Shown here piece after piece: positions 2,988 through 9,010 of a DNA stretch of 64,000 nt. Position 1 is the first letter of the stretch. Every line of letters starts with the position of its first letter. This stretch comes from an uncultured Acidimicrobiia bacterium (lineage in GTDB: Bacteria; Actinomycetota; Acidimicrobiia; Acidimicrobiales; CAIXPF01): positions 7,733 to 71,732 of the forward strand of contig CAIXPF010000139.1 of the NCBI GenBank assembly GCA_903921205.1, in the 5' to 3' direction. A model generated the notes under the pieces. It ran no database searches, had not been told where the DNA came from, and saw only the letters and a list, made by a program, of their open reading frames with translations. The translations under genes were made by a program, and so were the position numbers.

Positions 2988-3866
2988 CTAGCCGGCGATG
3001 GCGGCCAGGCCGGGGGGAAGGGCAACACCGGTCCGCTTGGCCTCGTCCTGCACCACACGGCGGAGTTCGGCCAGCCGGTCGGCCCACTGCGGCGTCTTCC
3101 CGGTGCGGGCCATCTCGACCCGTTCGACCCCGATACCGCCGCTGGAACGGCCGGCTCCATCGCTGTGGGTGACCTCGGCGATCTCGAGCTCCGAACCGTC
3201 GGGCATCACGTACTCGACCGAGTACGACGCCACCTGCGGCGCGTCCGGGTGGCCGGCCGGGGCGAAGTACCCCGAACCCGATCCGTCCTTCACGGCCACT
3301 TCCCACGGCCGCAGGCGGATCTGCGGGGCCAGGATCCCCCACTGGGCGAGACGGGGGAAGAACGCCGACGAATGATCGGTCGTGGTGACCCGAAGCCGGG
3401 TCGGGTCCAGTGCGACGACCTTGGTCAGGTACTCGAGCACGAGGTCCGTCGCCGTGTTCGCCAGGGCCGGGGTGCTCGTGTCGAGGCCGATGATGCTGAA
3501 CAGCGGAAGCGTGCCCGGTGTCGCCTTCTTCGCGACGTCCTCCGTCCGTGCGACCTGCTGTCTCAGATACGTCCGCTCGCTCAGCGCCCGCACGTCGTCG
3601 TCGTAGCGGAGCCCGCCGTTGAAGGCCAGCCCGGTGATCAGCGGGGCTGCCGCCGCCGCCGTGTAGCCGCGGCCGCGGAGGAAGGCATCGAATCCGGCCT
3701 CGGTCGCCCCGCCGGCCACCGCCGTCGACCTGACGGCGGGCACCGAACCGGCCGCCGAGTCGGACCCGGCCGAGTCGGACGACGAACCGCAGGCAGCAAG
3801 GACTCCGGCCGCGAACCATGCAGCGGCTCCACCCTCGATGAACGTGCGCCGGGACAGCGACATCAA
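2988..3866 (-). CDS. Tat-signal lipoprotein; mature part resembles a degenerate class II AlaRS catalytic core
   Basis: N-terminus MMSLSRRTFIEGG (S-R-R-x-F twin-arginine motif), an h-region, then lipobox VLAAC-G. High GC3. The mature region shows AlaRS-like blocks (see finding). Confidence 0.7.
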   Translation of the reverse strand: MMSLSRRTFIEGGAAAWFAAGVLAACGSSSDSAGSDSAAGSVPAVRSTAVAGGATEAGFDAFLRGRGYTAAAAAPLITGLAFNGGLRYDDDVRALSERTYLRQQVARTEDVAKKATPGTLPLFSIIGLDTSTPALANTATDLVLEYLTKVVALDPTRLRVTTTDHSSAFFPRLAQWGILAPQIRLRPWEVAVKDGSGSGYFAPAGHPDAPQVASYSVEYVMPDGSELEIAEVTHSDGAGRSSGGIGVERVEMARTGKTPQWADRLAELRRVVQDEAKRTGVALPPGLAAIAG

Positions 3867-3963
3867 CGCGCTCCTTGTCCGTCCGACTCGTCCTGCTGAC
3901 GGCGGGGTGCACGCACCCTAGACCTGCGGCAGGCGATGTCGATCGCGTCGGAGTCAGCGGAAC

Positions 3964-4047
3964 TCAGGCGTTACGCGCCATGTCGGCGAACGTGGTGTAC
4001 GGCCCGAGGAAGGCCAAACGGACCGTTCCCGTGGGTCCGGCCCGATG
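3964..4047 (-). pseudogene. relic copy of the dnaB 3' end (last 27 codons plus stop)
   Basis: The minus strand reads HRAGPTGTVRLAFLGPYTTFADMARNA-stop. Intact DnaB ends HRAGPTGTVRLAFLGQYTKFANMARNP-stop at 6124-6207, giving 23/27 identical residues. The two are also clearly alignable at nucleotide level. No upstream ORF continues the relic. Confidence 0.8.
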
Positions 4048-4084
4048 CGGACCGCTCCGCCCCCCACCGGCGTCGGGCCCGCGG

Positions 4085-4108
4085 CGCGACCGCGACCGCG
4101 ACCGCGAC
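4085..4108. repeat. hexanucleotide tandem repeat (cgcgac)x4
   Basis: Read directly: cgcgac cgcgac cgcgac cgcgac. Lies between the dnaB relic and tspO copy 2. Confidence 0.9.
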
Positions 4109-4163
4109 CGGTGTGGGAGGGGTGCGACCTCCGCCCGTGCAGGGCGCTCTGGGACAATGGACC

Positions 4164-4634
4164 ATGCGCATCGGTCCGGTCACCACCGCCATCGTCAGCA
4201 CGGCCCTCGTCGTCGTCTACGCCGCCGGGTCGGGACGGTGGGTGGCGAGCGGCGACGCCTGGTACCGGTCTCTGGTCCGCCCTGCGTGGCAGCCGCCCGA
4301 CATCGTGTTCGGCCTGATCTGGCCGTACAACTTCGCAGCCCTGATCGCCGCCGGCCTGGCCGTCGCCCTGCGCGGCTCGGCCGCGGCACGCTGGAGTTGG
4401 CTGATGGCCTTGTTGCTGAGCGTGATCGCCGCGTTGGCGTGGGCCCGGCTGTTCTACGTCGACCACGCGCTCCTCGCCGCGGCGGTGGCCCTGGTACTGG
4501 CCGCTCTCATCACGGTGGTGGCGGTGGTCGCCGCCTGGCGGACGCGAACCTGGGCCGGGGCCGTGCTGGTCCCCTACGTCGTCTGGCTCGCCCTCGCCGC
4601 ATCGCTGTCGATCGAGTACGCCCGACGGAACTGA
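4164..4634 (+). CDS. tspO: TspO/MBR tryptophan-rich sensory protein, copy 2
   Basis: 156 aa, gap-free collinear with copy 1 (WYRSLVRPAWQPP, GLIWPYNF, AWRTRTWAGAVL, YARRN-stop are shared). ATG at 4164. Confidence 0.85.
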   Translation: MRIGPVTTAIVSTALVVVYAAGSGRWVASGDAWYRSLVRPAWQPPDIVFGLIWPYNFAALIAAGLAVALRGSAAARWSWLMALLLSVIAALAWARLFYVDHALLAAAVALVLAALITVVAVVAAWRTRTWAGAVLVPYVVWLALAASLSIEYARRN

Positions 4635-4714: not shown

Positions 4715-5926
4715 TCAGGCCCGGGCCTGCACCACCACCCCGGCGCGGACCAGCTCGGCGTAGTCGGCCGGGCTCAGCCCGGCCACGGAGGTGAGCACCG
4801 CCTCGTTGTCCTCACCGAGGTCCGAGGCCTGCAGCTCGAGCAGTTCCGGGTACTCCGAGAAGCGGATGGGCACCCCGGGCATGTCGAACGCACCGATGCG
4901 GGGGTCGGTCACGCTGCGCACGATGCCGGTGCCGCGGAGGTGCGGATGGGCGACCGCCTCCTCGACGGTGAGGACCGGTGCCGCCGGCACGTGCTGGGCC
5001 TGCATGGCGGCCAGCGCGGTGTCGCGGTCGGGCTGGGTGGCGAGCCACGCGGCGATGACGGCGTTGACCTCGTCGCGCCGCGCCACCCGGCCGGCGCTGG
5101 TCGCGTAGCGCTCGTCGGTGGCGAGCTCCGGCCGGCCCATGGCCAGACACATGTCGGCCCACTGGCGGTCGTTGGCGGCGGCCACGATGACGTGCCCGTC
5201 GGCCACCGGGAACACGCCGTACCCTCCGACGAAGGGGTGCAGGGAGCCGCTGCGCATCGGTTCCATCGCCCCCTCGGAGATCGACCATGCCTGCACGTTC
5301 ACCTCGTGACAGGTCATGTAGCAGCCCAGCAACGAGATCTCCACGTGCTGGCCGCGCCCGGTGCGCTCGCGGTGGTACAGCGCAGCGGCCACCGCCCCGA
5401 ACCCGTGCACCCCGGTCAGCACGTCGCCCGGGGACAGGCCCATCAACGACGGCGCCCGGTCGGCTTCGCCGTTCATGTGCAGCACGCCACCGTAGGCCTG
5501 GGCGATGGCGTCGTAACCGGGGTGGTCACGCAGCGGACCCTCGGTCCCGAAGGCGGAGATCGAGCACATGATCAGACGGGGGTTACGGGCCGACACCGCT
5601 TCCCAGCCGAAGCCGAGGCGTTCGATCACCCCCGGGCTGAAGTTCTGCACCAACACGTCGACCTGCTCGACGAGCGCCATCACCACCTCGCGGCCGCGGG
5701 GATCCTTGACGTCGACGCAGATGCACTGCTTGCCCCGGTTCTGCTGCACGAAGTAGCCGGAGCGACCGTTACGCATCGCGGGCAGCCCCCGTGACATGTC
5801 CCCGGCGGGTGGCAGCTCGACCTTGACCACCTCGGCCCCGAACTCGACGAGGAGGCGGGTGACCGACGGCCCCGACAGGACGTTGCTGAAATCCAGCACC
5901 TTGACGCCATCGAAGATCCCCTGCAT
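4715..5926 (-). CDS. family III CoA-transferase (CaiB/BaiF/Frc-like)
   Basis: N-terminus MQGIFDGVKVLDFSNVLSGPSVTRLL...GAEVVKVE is the typical family III opening. A later GDxxTG-type block (SPGDVLTGVHG) is present. ATG at 5924-5926. Confidence 0.85.
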   Translation of the reverse strand: MQGIFDGVKVLDFSNVLSGPSVTRLLVEFGAEVVKVELPPAGDMSRGLPAMRNGRSGYFVQQNRGKQCICVDVKDPRGREVVMALVEQVDVLVQNFSPGVIERLGFGWEAVSARNPRLIMCSISAFGTEGPLRDHPGYDAIAQAYGGVLHMNGEADRAPSLMGLSPGDVLTGVHGFGAVAAALYHRERTGRGQHVEISLLGCYMTCHEVNVQAWSISEGAMEPMRSGSLHPFVGGYGVFPVADGHVIVAAANDRQWADMCLAMGRPELATDERYATSAGRVARRDEVNAVIAAWLATQPDRDTALAAMQAQHVPAAPVLTVEEAVAHPHLRGTGIVRSVTDPRIGAFDMPGVPIRFSEYPELLELQASDLGEDNEAVLTSVAGLSPADYAELVRAGVVVQARA

Positions 5927-6123
5927 TACGCCCCCTCGATCCACCCGTGACGGGCCGGAGGCTACCCGCCCTCCGCCGAGGCGTCCCTGCCCACCGGCTC
6001 GAGGCCGGCCGGGACGCAACTCGGCCGGGCCCGACCCAGCGGGACCCGGTGCCGCCGGATGCAGGGCGCCGGCGGGCGCGGTAGGGCCCCGGTGCTCGAC
6101 CTCGATGGCGCCCTACAACCGGA

Positions 6124-7491
6124 TCAGGGGTTGCGGGCCATGTTGGCGAACTTGGTGTACTGACCGAGGAACGCCAGGCGGACCGTGCCGGTGGGCCCGG
6201 CCCGGTGCTTGGCGACGATCACCTCGGCGATTCCCTGGTCCTGCGTGTCCTGGTGGTACACCTCGTCGCGGTAGAGGAACAGCACGACGTCGGCGTCCTG
6301 TTCGAGCGACCCGCTCTCGCGCAGGTCCGACAGCATCGGACGCTTGTCGGCCCGCTGCTCGAGGCCACGGTTGAGCTGCGCCAACGCCACGACCGGGGCT
6401 TCGATCTCACGGGCCAGGATCTTCAGCCCACGGCTGATCTCGGCCACCTCGACCTGGCGCGACTCGGCTCCGGATCGGCCGGTCATCAGCTGGATGTAGT
6501 CCACGACCACCATCCCCAGCTCGCCCACCTGCGACTTGAGCTTGCGGGCCTTCGAGCGGATCTCCATGACCGTGACGTTGGGGTTGTCGTCGATCCAGAT
6601 CGGCGCCTCGGCCAGCGGACCGACGGCACGGCCCAACTTCTCCCAGTCGGCCTCCGACAGCTTGCCGGTCCGCATCCGGGTGGCGTCCACCCTGGCCTCC
6701 GAGGACAGCAGGCGCTGGGTGATCTCCAGTCGGCTCATCTCGAGGGAGAACACCAGCGACGGCTTGTGGGAGGCGAGCGCCCCGTGGGCTGCCATCCCGA
6801 GGGCGAAGCTGGTCTTGCCCATGGCAGGCCGGGCACCGACCACCACCAGGGCGTTGGGCTGCAACCCGGCCAGGATCTCGTCGAGGTCGACGTAGCCGGT
6901 CGGGGTGCCGGTGATGGCCTCGCCCCGCTCATAGAGCTGCTCGAGCCGGTCCAGGGTCTCACCGAGCAGCTCGTGCACCGAAGCCGTGCTGCTCTCCACC
7001 CGGTGCTGCGCCAGGTTGAAGATCATCGACTCGGCCTGGTCGATGGCCTTGGTCACGTCGTCGGGCAGCGAGTAGCCGAGCTCGGCGATCTCGCCGGCGG
7101 TGTTGATCATCGAGCGCAGCAACGCCAACTCCTCGATGATCTCGCCATGCCGACGGGCATTGGAAATTGCCGGAGCCGATGCCTGCAGGGCGATCAGCGT
7201 GCCGGGACCCCCGATGGCGTCGAGCAACCCCGCCCGGTTCAACTCGTCGGCCACCGTGATCGGGTCGGCCGGCTCGCCTGCGCTGTACAGCGTGGCGATG
7301 GCGTCGAAGACGTGAGCGTGGGCGGGCTTGTAGAAGTGCTCGGGCCGCACCAGTTCGGTGGCGGTGGCAATGGCGTCGCGCGACAGCAGCATGGCGCCGA
7401 GCAGCGACTCCTCGGCCTGCAGGTTGTGTGGGGTGACACGGGCCGAGGTCCGGCCCGGCTCACCGCTGGACGGTGACACCATGATCCTCAC
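6124..7491 (-). CDS. dnaB: replicative DNA helicase DnaB (no intein)
   Basis: PHNLQAEESLLGAMLL N-terminal motif. Walker A GARPAMGKTSFAL, DYIQLM, SRGLKILAREIEAPVVALAQLNR and RESGSLEQDADVV are present. GTG start at 7491; an alternative ATG lies at 7482. Confidence 0.95.
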   Translation of the reverse strand: MRIMVSPSSGEPGRTSARVTPHNLQAEESLLGAMLLSRDAIATATELVRPEHFYKPAHAHVFDAIATLYSAGEPADPITVADELNRAGLLDAIGGPGTLIALQASAPAISNARRHGEIIEELALLRSMINTAGEIAELGYSLPDDVTKAIDQAESMIFNLAQHRVESSTASVHELLGETLDRLEQLYERGEAITGTPTGYVDLDEILAGLQPNALVVVGARPAMGKTSFALGMAAHGALASHKPSLVFSLEMSRLEITQRLLSSEARVDATRMRTGKLSEADWEKLGRAVGPLAEAPIWIDDNPNVTVMEIRSKARKLKSQVGELGMVVVDYIQLMTGRSGAESRQVEVAEISRGLKILAREIEAPVVALAQLNRGLEQRADKRPMLSDLRESGSLEQDADVVLFLYRDEVYHQDTQDQGIAEVIVAKHRAGPTGTVRLAFLGQYTKFANMARNP

Positions 7492-7541
7492 ACCTTGGGC
7501 GACGCGGGCTGTGCGTTTCCAGGGGACAGCCCGGAAATTGC

Positions 7542-7593
7542 TGTGGACAACGCGGTGGACACTGGGTACGACCAGAGTCCGAACTGTGGATAA
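7542..7593 (-). promoter_or_regulatory. DnaA-box pair upstream of dnaB
   Basis: tgtggacaa (7542-7550) reads TTGTCCACA on the minus strand. tgtggataa (7585-7593) reads TTATCCACA. A weaker ggtggacac lies at 7554-7562. They sit in an A/T-richer stretch 51-102 nt upstream of the dnaB start. Confidence 0.55.
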
Positions 7594-7620
7594 CGATGTG
7601 TAAAGAGGGGCTGATCTGGG

Positions 7621-7659
7621 GAAAATAGCGACTGCGCCACCCCGAGGGGCGGCGCAGTC
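7621..7659 (-). terminator. intrinsic terminator after rplI
   Basis: The minus strand reads GACTGCGCCGCCCC-UC-GGGGUGGCGCAGUC, a 14-bp stem with one mismatch, followed by GCUAUUUUC. Lies 34 nt downstream of the rplI stop. Confidence 0.65.
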
Positions 7660-7692
7660 GACCTACACCGGTGGTGATGTCACGCTGGGTGA

Positions 7693-8142
7693 TCAGCGAG
7701 CAACCACGTCGACCTGCAGGAAGATCTGCACGTCGTTGTGGAGATGCGCAGGCACGGAGTGCATGCCGACGGTCTTGAGCGGCTCTTCCATCGCAATGGT
7801 GCGACGGTCGATCTCGAGACCGGTCTGGTTGTAGACCGCCTCGACGACGTCGGCCTCGGAGACCGACCCGAACAGACGGCCTTCGCCGCCGGCCCGGGCT
7901 TCGATCTTGATGACCGTGGGAGCCAGACGCTTGGCGATCTCCTCGGCGGCGGCGCGGTCACGCGCATCCTTGATGTCCCGGGACACCCGCATGGTGACGG
8001 CCTGTGCCTCGGCACCGGCCGAGGAGCGCATCGCCAGACCCTGGGGCAGCAGGTAGTTACGGGCGTACCCGTCGCTCACCTCGACCAGCTCGCCCCGCTT
8101 GCCCAGACCGCGCACGGTATCGCGCAGGATGACCTTGATCAT
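7693..8142 (-). CDS. rplI: 50S ribosomal protein L9
   Basis: [37 protein letters not shown] is the canonical L9 N-terminus. ATGA overlap with the rpsR stop. Confidence 0.95.
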
Positions 8143-8534
8143 TCCTCGACCTCCTCGGCCTCGGGCACCTCGATGGCCTCGTCAGCCACCGGTGCCAACT
8201 CGGTGTCCTCACCACGCGGCGGACGACCTTCACCCCGGTTACCACGGTCGGGACGCGAGCTGCGCTGCGTAGTGACCCGGTTGGTGTACGGCAACAGCGC
8301 CATTTCCCGGGCGTTCTTGATGGCCATCGCCACCGCCCGCTGCTGCTGCTGATCGTTGCCGGTCACGCGTCGGGCACGGATCTTGGCCCGGTCCGACATG
8401 AAACGGCGCAGAAGGTTGACGTCCTTGTAGTCCACGTACTCGACCCGCTCCTGGGTGAGAACGGAGATCTTCTTCTTCGCGCGCTTGGCGTTGTCCTTCA
8501 GCTTGCCCCGTTGGGGGCCCTTGACCTTCGCCAT
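8139..8534 (-). CDS. rpsR: 30S ribosomal protein S18, with a long acidic C-terminal extension
   Basis: Core [28 protein letters not shown]...[13 protein letters not shown]. Carries about 50 extra C-terminal residues ending [10 protein letters not shown]. Confidence 0.93.
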
Positions 8535-9010
8535 CAGAACGGCTCCTCGTCGTAGTCATAGGCCGGCGGTTGATTGGATGCAGGGCGGGCGAAGCTGCCA
8601 CCGGAACCGGGGCCGCCACCTCCCGCGGGGGTGCCGCCATCTCCACGGCGCTCGTTCTTGGTCACCTCGGCCGTGGCCCAACGCAGGGACGGTCCGATCT
8701 CATCGGCGACGACCTCGATCTTCGAGCGACGATCGCCATCCTGGGTTTCCCACGAACGCTGCTCGAGCCGACCCTGCACCAGCACGCGGGAACCGCGACT
8801 CAGCGACTCGGAGATGTTCTCGGCCAGCGTGCCGTAAGCGACCACATCGAAGAAGGAGGTTTCTTCCTTCCACTCATTGGTGTTGCGATCCTGGCGGCGA
8901 CGGTTCACCGCCAAGCCGAACTGGGCGACGGCCATGCCGCCCGGGGTGAACCGCAACTCGGGATCGCGGGTGATGTTGCCGACGAGGTCGACACTGTTTC
9001 CGATCGCCAT
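8534..9010 (-). CDS. ssb: single-stranded DNA-binding protein
   Basis: OB-fold N-terminus [21 protein letters not shown], a Gly-rich linker and an acidic tip DYDEEPF. Confidence 0.95.

Follow-up and report, generated by a model that had tools for sequence, protein, structure and literature searches.

Bacteria have reused the cores of aminoacyl-tRNA synthetases outside translation many times and, as far as we know, always inside the cell. AsnA, HisZ, PoxA/EpmA and the amino acid:carrier-protein ligases are all class II cores put to such use; they are cytoplasmic, derive from AspRS, HisRS, LysRS or SerRS and not from alanyl-tRNA synthetase (AlaRS), and to our knowledge none of them carries an export signal. 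The LigE-type DNA ligases, which depend on adenosine triphosphate (ATP) and have signal peptides, represent a nucleotidyl-transfer fold predicted to be extracytoplasmic. A stand-alone AlaRS-like protein has been described in ascamycin biosynthesis, where AcmF, an AlaRS paralogue that is truncated and has lost the activation of alanine, acts as an aminoacyl transferase; it is cytoplasmic, keeps its tRNA-recognition domain, takes Ala-tRNA as donor, and is reported to be without most ATP-binding residues and to have N -> Q and D -> E substitutions in its pocket (PMC12945691). We here describe a gene at positions 2988-3863, minus strand, of a 64,000-nucleotide stretch (the window) of contig CAIXPF010000139.1 from the assembly GCA_903921205.1 of an uncultured Acidimicrobiia bacterium, which encodes a predicted lipoprotein with a leader for the twin-arginine translocation (Tat) pathway and a single folded domain that is homologous to the catalytic core of AlaRS. 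A first-pass annotation, made by eye from the letters of the window, had proposed an aminoacyl-tRNA synthetase fold in an exported protein and knew of no characterised exported AlaRS-core lipoprotein; our literature searches, in a searchable library that is incomplete, likewise gave no report of an exported or Tat-dependent synthetase-like protein in bacteria.

Curated sequence families miss the relationship with AlaRS. Pfam and NCBIfam scans of the protein and 29 relatives returned no AlaRS or other folded-domain match, and PF01411 (tRNA-synt_2c), the profile that the first-pass annotation had named for a check, did not match the window protein or any of the 29 relatives even at expect values (E) up to 10. 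In a six-frame PF01411 search of the whole genome the gene at 2988-3863 was again not matched, and phmmer and hmmsearch against PDB sequences reached AlaRS only at a non-significant E of 1.6. The link becomes visible only at the level of fold and of profile-profile comparison. An AlphaFold2 model was built on the 29-sequence alignment; its predicted local distance difference test score (pLDDT) exceeds 90 for residues 56-292 and stays under 50 for residues 1-55 (the numbering of the window protein, P0001, counts from a TTG at 3866 and thus includes one N-terminal residue more than the ATG start discussed below). Foldseek searches of the PDB with this model put AlaRS catalytic fragments at ranks 1-19 (E 4e-8 to 6e-6), other class II synthetases following at E 1e-4 or worse. 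Re-alignment with VIA to E. coli AlaRS (3hxu) superposed 233 residues (model 53-292 on chain 1-314) with Z 18.1 and a root-mean-square deviation of 3.4 Å; the top 12 rows were twelve bacterial and human AlaRS entries with Z 16-18, after which archaeal AlaRS scored Z ~12.5 and GlyRS, ThrRS, HisRS and PheRS Z 12 or less, with HisZ and HisRS structures matching only at Z ~11.

Comparison of profiles leads to the same family. With hhalign, 108 family members aligned to 31 AlaRS N-terminal domains with a probability of 98.0% and E 1.4e-13 over 212 columns, placing P0001 51-265 on E. coli 4-259. The match does not hinge on L017, the one AlaRS sequence of the 31 that belongs to an unpublished genome (G001), because a two-sequence AlaRS profile still gave 96% probability. 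The seven collinear blocks that had been paired by eye in the first-pass annotation were all reproduced in essentially the same register, far beyond chance, as can be seen from the pairings F59=F12, NGG=NAG, QQVAR=QRCVR, LFSIIGL=FFEMLGN, ELEIAEV=YIEIWNI and GIGVER=GMGLER (E. coli counting Met1). In the ESM Atlas, language-model features scored 0.93 to tRNA-synt_2c clusters, and a fold search was led by the family's own unnamed clusters (template modelling score, TM, 0.72 and 0.68) followed by AlaRS (TM 0.65). Taken as a whole we regard it as practically certain that the folded domain is a homologue of the AlaRS (class IIc) catalytic core. The six-frame PF01411 search also found a genuine alaS on another contig, in an 865-residue open frame, so that the genome has a normal full-length AlaRS and the lipoprotein copy is not needed for translation. 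A second PF01411 match in the same genome, outside the window (G000:C20:17827-18051), is a short C-terminal one that spans model positions 473-552 and lies in a 383-residue open frame; comparable short matches are present in many genomes of the phylum.

The domain shares fold, topology and collinear blocks with the bacterial AlaRS aminoacylation domain (E. coli 1-~310; PDB 3hxu, 1riq; PF01411) at a sequence identity of ~15-18%, and is the smaller of the two, with ~237 residues against ~250-310 in the matching AlaRS part and with three internal loops shorter by ~4, 14 and 11 residues in the hhalign alignment. In class II synthetases the motif-2 Arg and Phe and the motif-3 G-x-E-R hold the adenylate. 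E. coli literature numbering was transferred to the hhalign columns, and residues were tallied for the 108 family members and the 31 AlaRS sequences. Invariant in AlaRS and near-invariant in the family are G42 (G85 in the window protein, 104/108), Q65 (Q103, 106/108), R69 (R107, 107/108), D76 (D110, 108/108), F90 (F123, 107/108), E209 (E228, 104/108), G239 (G246, 105/108), E241 (E248, 100/108) and R242 (R249, 107/108).

The alanine pocket has fared differently. The substrate-pocket residues of E. coli AlaRS are M43, R69, W170, N212, D235 and G237 (PMC12467997). Only R69 is kept outright in the family and G237 is mostly kept (G in 75/108, A or S in most others), while the M43 position is L in 93/108, the W170 position is variable (A, R, N, F, E), the N212 position is Glu (E231) in 100/108, and the D235 position is S, A, G or V. 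The first-pass annotation had thus been right that three AlaRS residues are replaced, W and N in IEIWN and Asp in DTGMG. K73 of the GGKHND loop falls in a four-residue deletion. The family has invariant residues of its own, namely N83, D89, R186, G197-S198-G199, F201, P203 and H206-P207, with G197 in 103/108, S198 in 100/108, G199 in 107/108 and F201 in 94/108, and with H206 and P207 invariant among the 29 close members; most of these appear to replace the AlaRS pocket walls around M43, W170 and N212. According to the alignment, the family has conserved the nucleotide half of the site and rebuilt the amino-acid half instead of letting it decay. The word "degenerate", used of the core in the first-pass annotation, accordingly goes only half of the way; and since the class II nucleotide-site residues are nearly invariant, of the two options that it had offered a new ligand is likelier than a pseudo-enzyme that has simply decayed.

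The protein cannot be an alanyl-tRNA synthetase, because the tRNA-recognition, editing and C-Ala domains are absent (it ends at residue 292, close to E. coli residue 314), K73 is deleted and the alanine-binding residues are replaced. We view its single folded domain as paralogous to the aminoacylation domain of bacterial AlaRS but trimmed; unlike AlaRS, the protein also has an export signal and a lipobox. AcmF is the closest described stand-alone AlaRS-like protein: both are truncated AlaRS paralogues in which the Asn and Asp of the alanine pocket are substituted. Yet the two are opposites in location, tRNA domain, use of Ala-tRNA and ATP-site residues, the window protein having a Tat leader, no tRNA domain and its ATP-site residues kept, with N -> E and D -> small residues as its pocket substitutions.

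The second part of the finding concerns predicted export. As the first-pass annotation had noted, the N-terminus carries SRRTFIEGG and the lipobox LAAC: SRRTFIE (residues 5-11) is followed by the uncharged hydrophobic stretch GGAAAWFAAGVLAA and then by LAAC, an arrangement that agrees with an S/T-R-R-x-F-L-K-type motif plus hydrophobic h-region. All other strings given in the first-pass annotation for this protein likewise occur in its sequence. Counting as Tat-type any leader with a twin arginine followed by at least 12 uncharged residues, we found one in 93/108 family members compared to 27/478 neighbouring control open reading frames (ORFs); Pfam TAT_signal gave only weak matches, in 9/29 members with a best E of 0.023. 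The lipobox conforms to [LVI][ASTVI][GAS]C, and the same assembly encodes TatC (E 3e-62) as well as Lgt (E 1e-61) and LspA (E 5e-31). A lipobox with a low-complexity tether is typical of actinobacterial lipoproteins, and in the family the lipobox is found in ~30 members, essentially the actinobacterial clade; outside this clade most members are without one and many have an A-x-A-type cleavage site. On these grounds we regard export as strongly predicted and as probably real.

The family does not always carry Tat or lipoprotein signals, a point that the first-pass annotation had raised: the Tat-type leader is the rule, but the lipobox is confined to those ~30 members and a few relatives have no leader. 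Four rare members (P0114, P0115, P0123, P0124) are without the Tat-type leader, three of them beginning directly with the domain. All four retain the class II core residues, are without some or all of R186, S198, H206 and P207, have Gln at the E231 position in three cases, and in the tree fall outside or on long branches. That the leaderless members differ at family-specific residues indicates that those residues go together with export, and the four could represent cytoplasmic forms intermediate between AlaRS and the exported family. The genomic contexts of P0123 and P0114 gave nothing informative. The leaderless members sit at loci L089-L091, and the Gln at the AlaRS N212 position in three of them is the same substitution as that reported for AcmF. 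Coordinates of the gene and its parts are collected in Table 1.

Table 1. Features of the AlaRS-like lipoprotein gene, in window coordinates (residue numbers as for P0001)
Feature	Position	Strand	Remarks
Whole coding sequence	2988..3863	-	ATG at 3863; TAG stop 2988-2990; in-frame TTG one codon upstream at 3866
Shine-Dalgarno AAGGAG	3871..3876	-	7 nt ahead of the ATG; read directly from the sequence
Predicted Tat/lipoprotein signal peptide (residues 2-25)	3792..3863	-	RR motif and uncharged h-region; SRRTFIE at 3834-3854
Lipobox L23-A24-A25-C26	3789..3800	-	Read from the sequence; Cys26 is the putative lipidated first mature residue
Ser/Gly/Ala-rich disordered tether (residues 27-55)	3702..3788	-	pLDDT <50 over residues 1-55; length and sequence vary across the alignment
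AlaRS-like aminoacylation-core domain (residues 56-292, ~237 residues)	2991..3701	-	pLDDT >90; structure and profile matches to AlaRS
Class II motif 2 equivalent Q103-x3-R107-x-E109-D110 ... F123	3498..3560	-	E. coli Q65, R69, D76, F90; loop 4 residues shorter, without K73
Family-specific loop G-S-G-S-G-Y-F-A-P-A-G-H-P (residues 195-207)	3246..3284	-	Replaces the AlaRS W170 pocket wall
Strand E228-I-A-E231	3174..3185	-	E228 is E. coli E209, kept; E231 (100/108) in place of N212
Class II motif 3 equivalent G246-V-E248-R249	3120..3131	-	E. coli G239-L-E241-R242

The coding sequence itself stands on firm ground. The ORF given in the first-pass annotation, 2988-3866, is there and amounts to 292 codons counted from the TTG; the ATG at 3863 is the likelier start, because AAGGAG lies 7 nt upstream of it and the homologues start with MSLSRR, as all close ones do in the alignment. 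Comparison with a 96%-identical orthologue (L036) from a public Acidimicrobiia metagenome-assembled genome (MAG) gave a ratio of nonsynonymous to synonymous substitution rates (dN/dS) of 0.33. The window stretch is contained in lake, river and drinking-water metagenomes of several studies, and two metatranscriptome runs hold one short contig each within the gene, one identical over 3077-3254 and one with 5 differences over 3562-3778; these give a weak hint of transcription, DNA carry-over being possible. A promoter and terminator scan found no element. Several long overlapping ORFs on both strands around 2988-3866 would suit a chance open frame in GC-rich DNA, but homologues in several phyla, the 34 invariant columns shared by the 29 closest sequences, the confident fold prediction, the Shine-Dalgarno site and the dN/dS contradict it, and we give this reading, which these data already refute, next to no weight. 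The ORF at 2988-3863 is a genuine gene under constraint.

What might such a protein do? The explanation that we favour, with some reserve, is that it is an envelope protein binding or using an adenine-nucleotide-like ligand. It would be exported in folded form via the Tat pathway, lipidated at Cys26 and tethered on the outer face of the cytoplasmic membrane. There the conserved class II site would bind a ligand containing an adenine nucleotide, be it ATP, AMP or an acyl- or aminoacyl-adenylate-like compound, with the half of the site for adenosine and the alpha-phosphate (R107, E109/D110, F123, E228, G246-x-E248-R249) under strong constraint; the rebuilt pocket (N83, D89, R186, the G-S-G loop, H206-P207, E231) would recognise a second, non-alanine moiety, and the protein would act on, or sense, that ligand in the cell envelope. 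Of the separate elements, a nucleotide-type ligand seems to us to have slightly better than even chances, and true catalysis instead of binding only is less likely than not. Several observations weigh against this explanation. Little ATP is available outside the cytoplasm, the chief obstacle to an ordinary ATP-consuming ligase; the LigE ligases pose the same puzzle of an ATP source, in an analogy that goes no further since neither fold nor substrate is related. In the family the motif-2 loop is shorter and AlaRS H86 has become V or T; this part of class II motif 2 helps to hold the triphosphate, so that full ATP binding is not assured. The pocket assigned to the new invariant residues is a putative one, drawn from the AlaRS alignment. 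No neighbouring gene is conserved beyond lineage-level synteny in the 53 genome loci and 7 metagenome contexts compared (ORFs were clustered, and ORF calling is unreliable in GC-rich loci). Finally, the L036 orthologue (L036:8001-8879) differs at codons 104-108 and 124-125 (Q104P, R107C, T108V, S124D, I125T), with base changes in two tight clusters that would remove the motif-2 arginine. Two DNA runs on the window have no variant at the codon concerned (3546-3548) and agree with Arg; the Arg->Cys change in L036 could reflect either an error of assembly or a genuine inactive allele.

The main rival takes up several of these points and makes the protein a pseudo-enzyme or scaffold, in which the fold is a stable platform for a non-nucleotide ligand or for a partner protein of the envelope, with the conserved Arg, Glu and Phe needed for folding or for this alternative ligand. 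The loss of the alanine-binding Asp and Trp, the shortened motif-2 loop, the ATP-poor location, the Cys at the motif-2 Arg in L036 and the existence of non-catalytic regulatory synthetase paralogues such as HisZ all fit this well, but the near-invariant residues are exactly the class II adenylate ones, across two phyla and 108 sequences, and adenylate residues usually drift in purely regulatory synthetase paralogues; we therefore hold it to be unlikely, though well worth keeping in mind. Conserved adenylate-site residues and a leader that is near-universal in the family would also be explained by charge-then-export, if the protein bound ATP and substrate in the cytoplasm, formed a tightly held acyl- or aminoacyl-adenylate, was exported folded by Tat, which exports folded proteins that are perhaps already ligand-loaded, and then, turning over just once, handed its activated group to an acceptor in the envelope. 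An enzyme of this kind would be costly and has no single-turnover precedent known to us among class II synthetase-like proteins; the neighbourhoods contain no conserved gene for an acceptor or partner, and many Tat substrates of Actinomycetota and rhizobia carry no cofactor, all of which makes this improbable. Slightly less credible still is a cytoplasmic ATP-dependent ligase of new specificity, likened to the other stand-alone synthetase paralogues, whose leader is not used for export or is only a membrane anchor. It would account for the conserved ATP-site residues and for the existence of a few leaderless relatives, but 93/108 members from different phyla have retained an RR motif, an h-region and a cleavage site (lipobox or A-x-A), the lipobox and tether are those of actinobacterial lipoproteins, and it is precisely the leaderless forms that deviate at family-specific residues. 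An envelope protein with an adenine-nucleotide-like ligand remains, in our opinion, the best overall account of these data.

The family to which the protein belongs is uncharacterised and without a name, and every source name that we retrieved for it reads "hypothetical protein". A word-indexed search returned 33 relatives of 280-300 residues, and an exhaustive phmmer search of 1.84 billion representatives gave 117 clusters at 50% identity, 81 of them with E of 1e-10 or below and no canonical AlaRS among the 117. A search for longer or fused relatives, weak evidence by its nature, found none. The taxonomic distribution, the other matter left for follow-up by the first-pass annotation, is sporadic, since just one of 201 sampled genomes of the same class, the window's own, has a clear full-length match. 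Scanning one genome per species gave 53 loci, which in the Actinomycetota are mostly freshwater (Acidimicrobiia, Microthrixaceae, IMCC26207, Thermoleophilia), with many others in Hyphomicrobiales (Roseibium/Labrenzia, Hoeflea, Nitratireductor, Bauldia) and one in a Competibacteraceae bin; other cluster members are labelled Planctomycetota, Deltaproteobacteria and Gammaproteobacteria. In the tree the Actinomycetota clade stands apart from the Pseudomonadota clade with high support. L037, from a MAG titled Candidatus Kuenenia stuttgartiensis, nests within the Actinomycetota clade, for which reason its bin label may be wrong. The P0009 and P0036 clusters are labelled Planctomycetota, and as the P0036 cluster lies on a 3.85-Mb contig the Planctomycetota carriers may be real.

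In its genomic surroundings the family gene looks monocistronic and without a dedicated partner, the nearest genes often being convergent to it. Recurring convergent neighbours are a sulfatase-like gene in Roseibium and a thiolase in Hoeflea. Neither the MscS-like channels nor the AMP-binding enzymes, each present in two contexts, proved to be general. In the window, TspO/MBR paralogues flank the gene on the opposite strand (2207-2917 and 3936-4634, both plus; Pfam E 3e-17 and 7e-18); they have 67% protein identity over 169 residues and 77% DNA identity over 460 bases, and this arrangement is shared only with the 96%-identical relative L036. The genes around these (1006-2484, 4715-6019 and 6124-9010, all minus) are ordinary housekeeping genes, with nicotinate phosphoribosyltransferase and family III coenzyme A-transferase as Pfam names near the gene and, next along and judged by eye from the translations, DnaB, ribosomal proteins L9 and S18, and SSB. 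In the IMCC26207 group (L038-L042) two same-strand genes, for a PhyH-family dioxygenase and a NUDIX hydrolase, precede the family gene, in a locus that adjoins carotenoid genes (phytoene synthase, lycopene cyclase, hydroxylase); this is lineage-specific synteny seen nowhere else.

The family thus appears to form a new branch of class II synthetase-like proteins, predicted to be exported, and is a case of a true homologue overlooked by curated sequence families and recovered only by fold and profile-profile comparison. Through it the fold of a translation enzyme appears to be reused outside the cell membrane. A Tat leader combined with kept adenylate residues and a rebuilt pocket points either to new extracytoplasmic nucleotide-dependent chemistry or to new envelope receptors for nucleotides or adenylates; charge-then-export, if true, would mean adenylate-dependent reactions on an acceptor that is external or in the envelope, and would bring ATP-type ligation to a place where no ATP is available. 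Cultured carriers exist in Labrenzia alba, several Roseibium and Hoeflea strains, Nitratireductor sp. XY-223 and actinobacterium IMCC26207, which makes the question testable at the bench.

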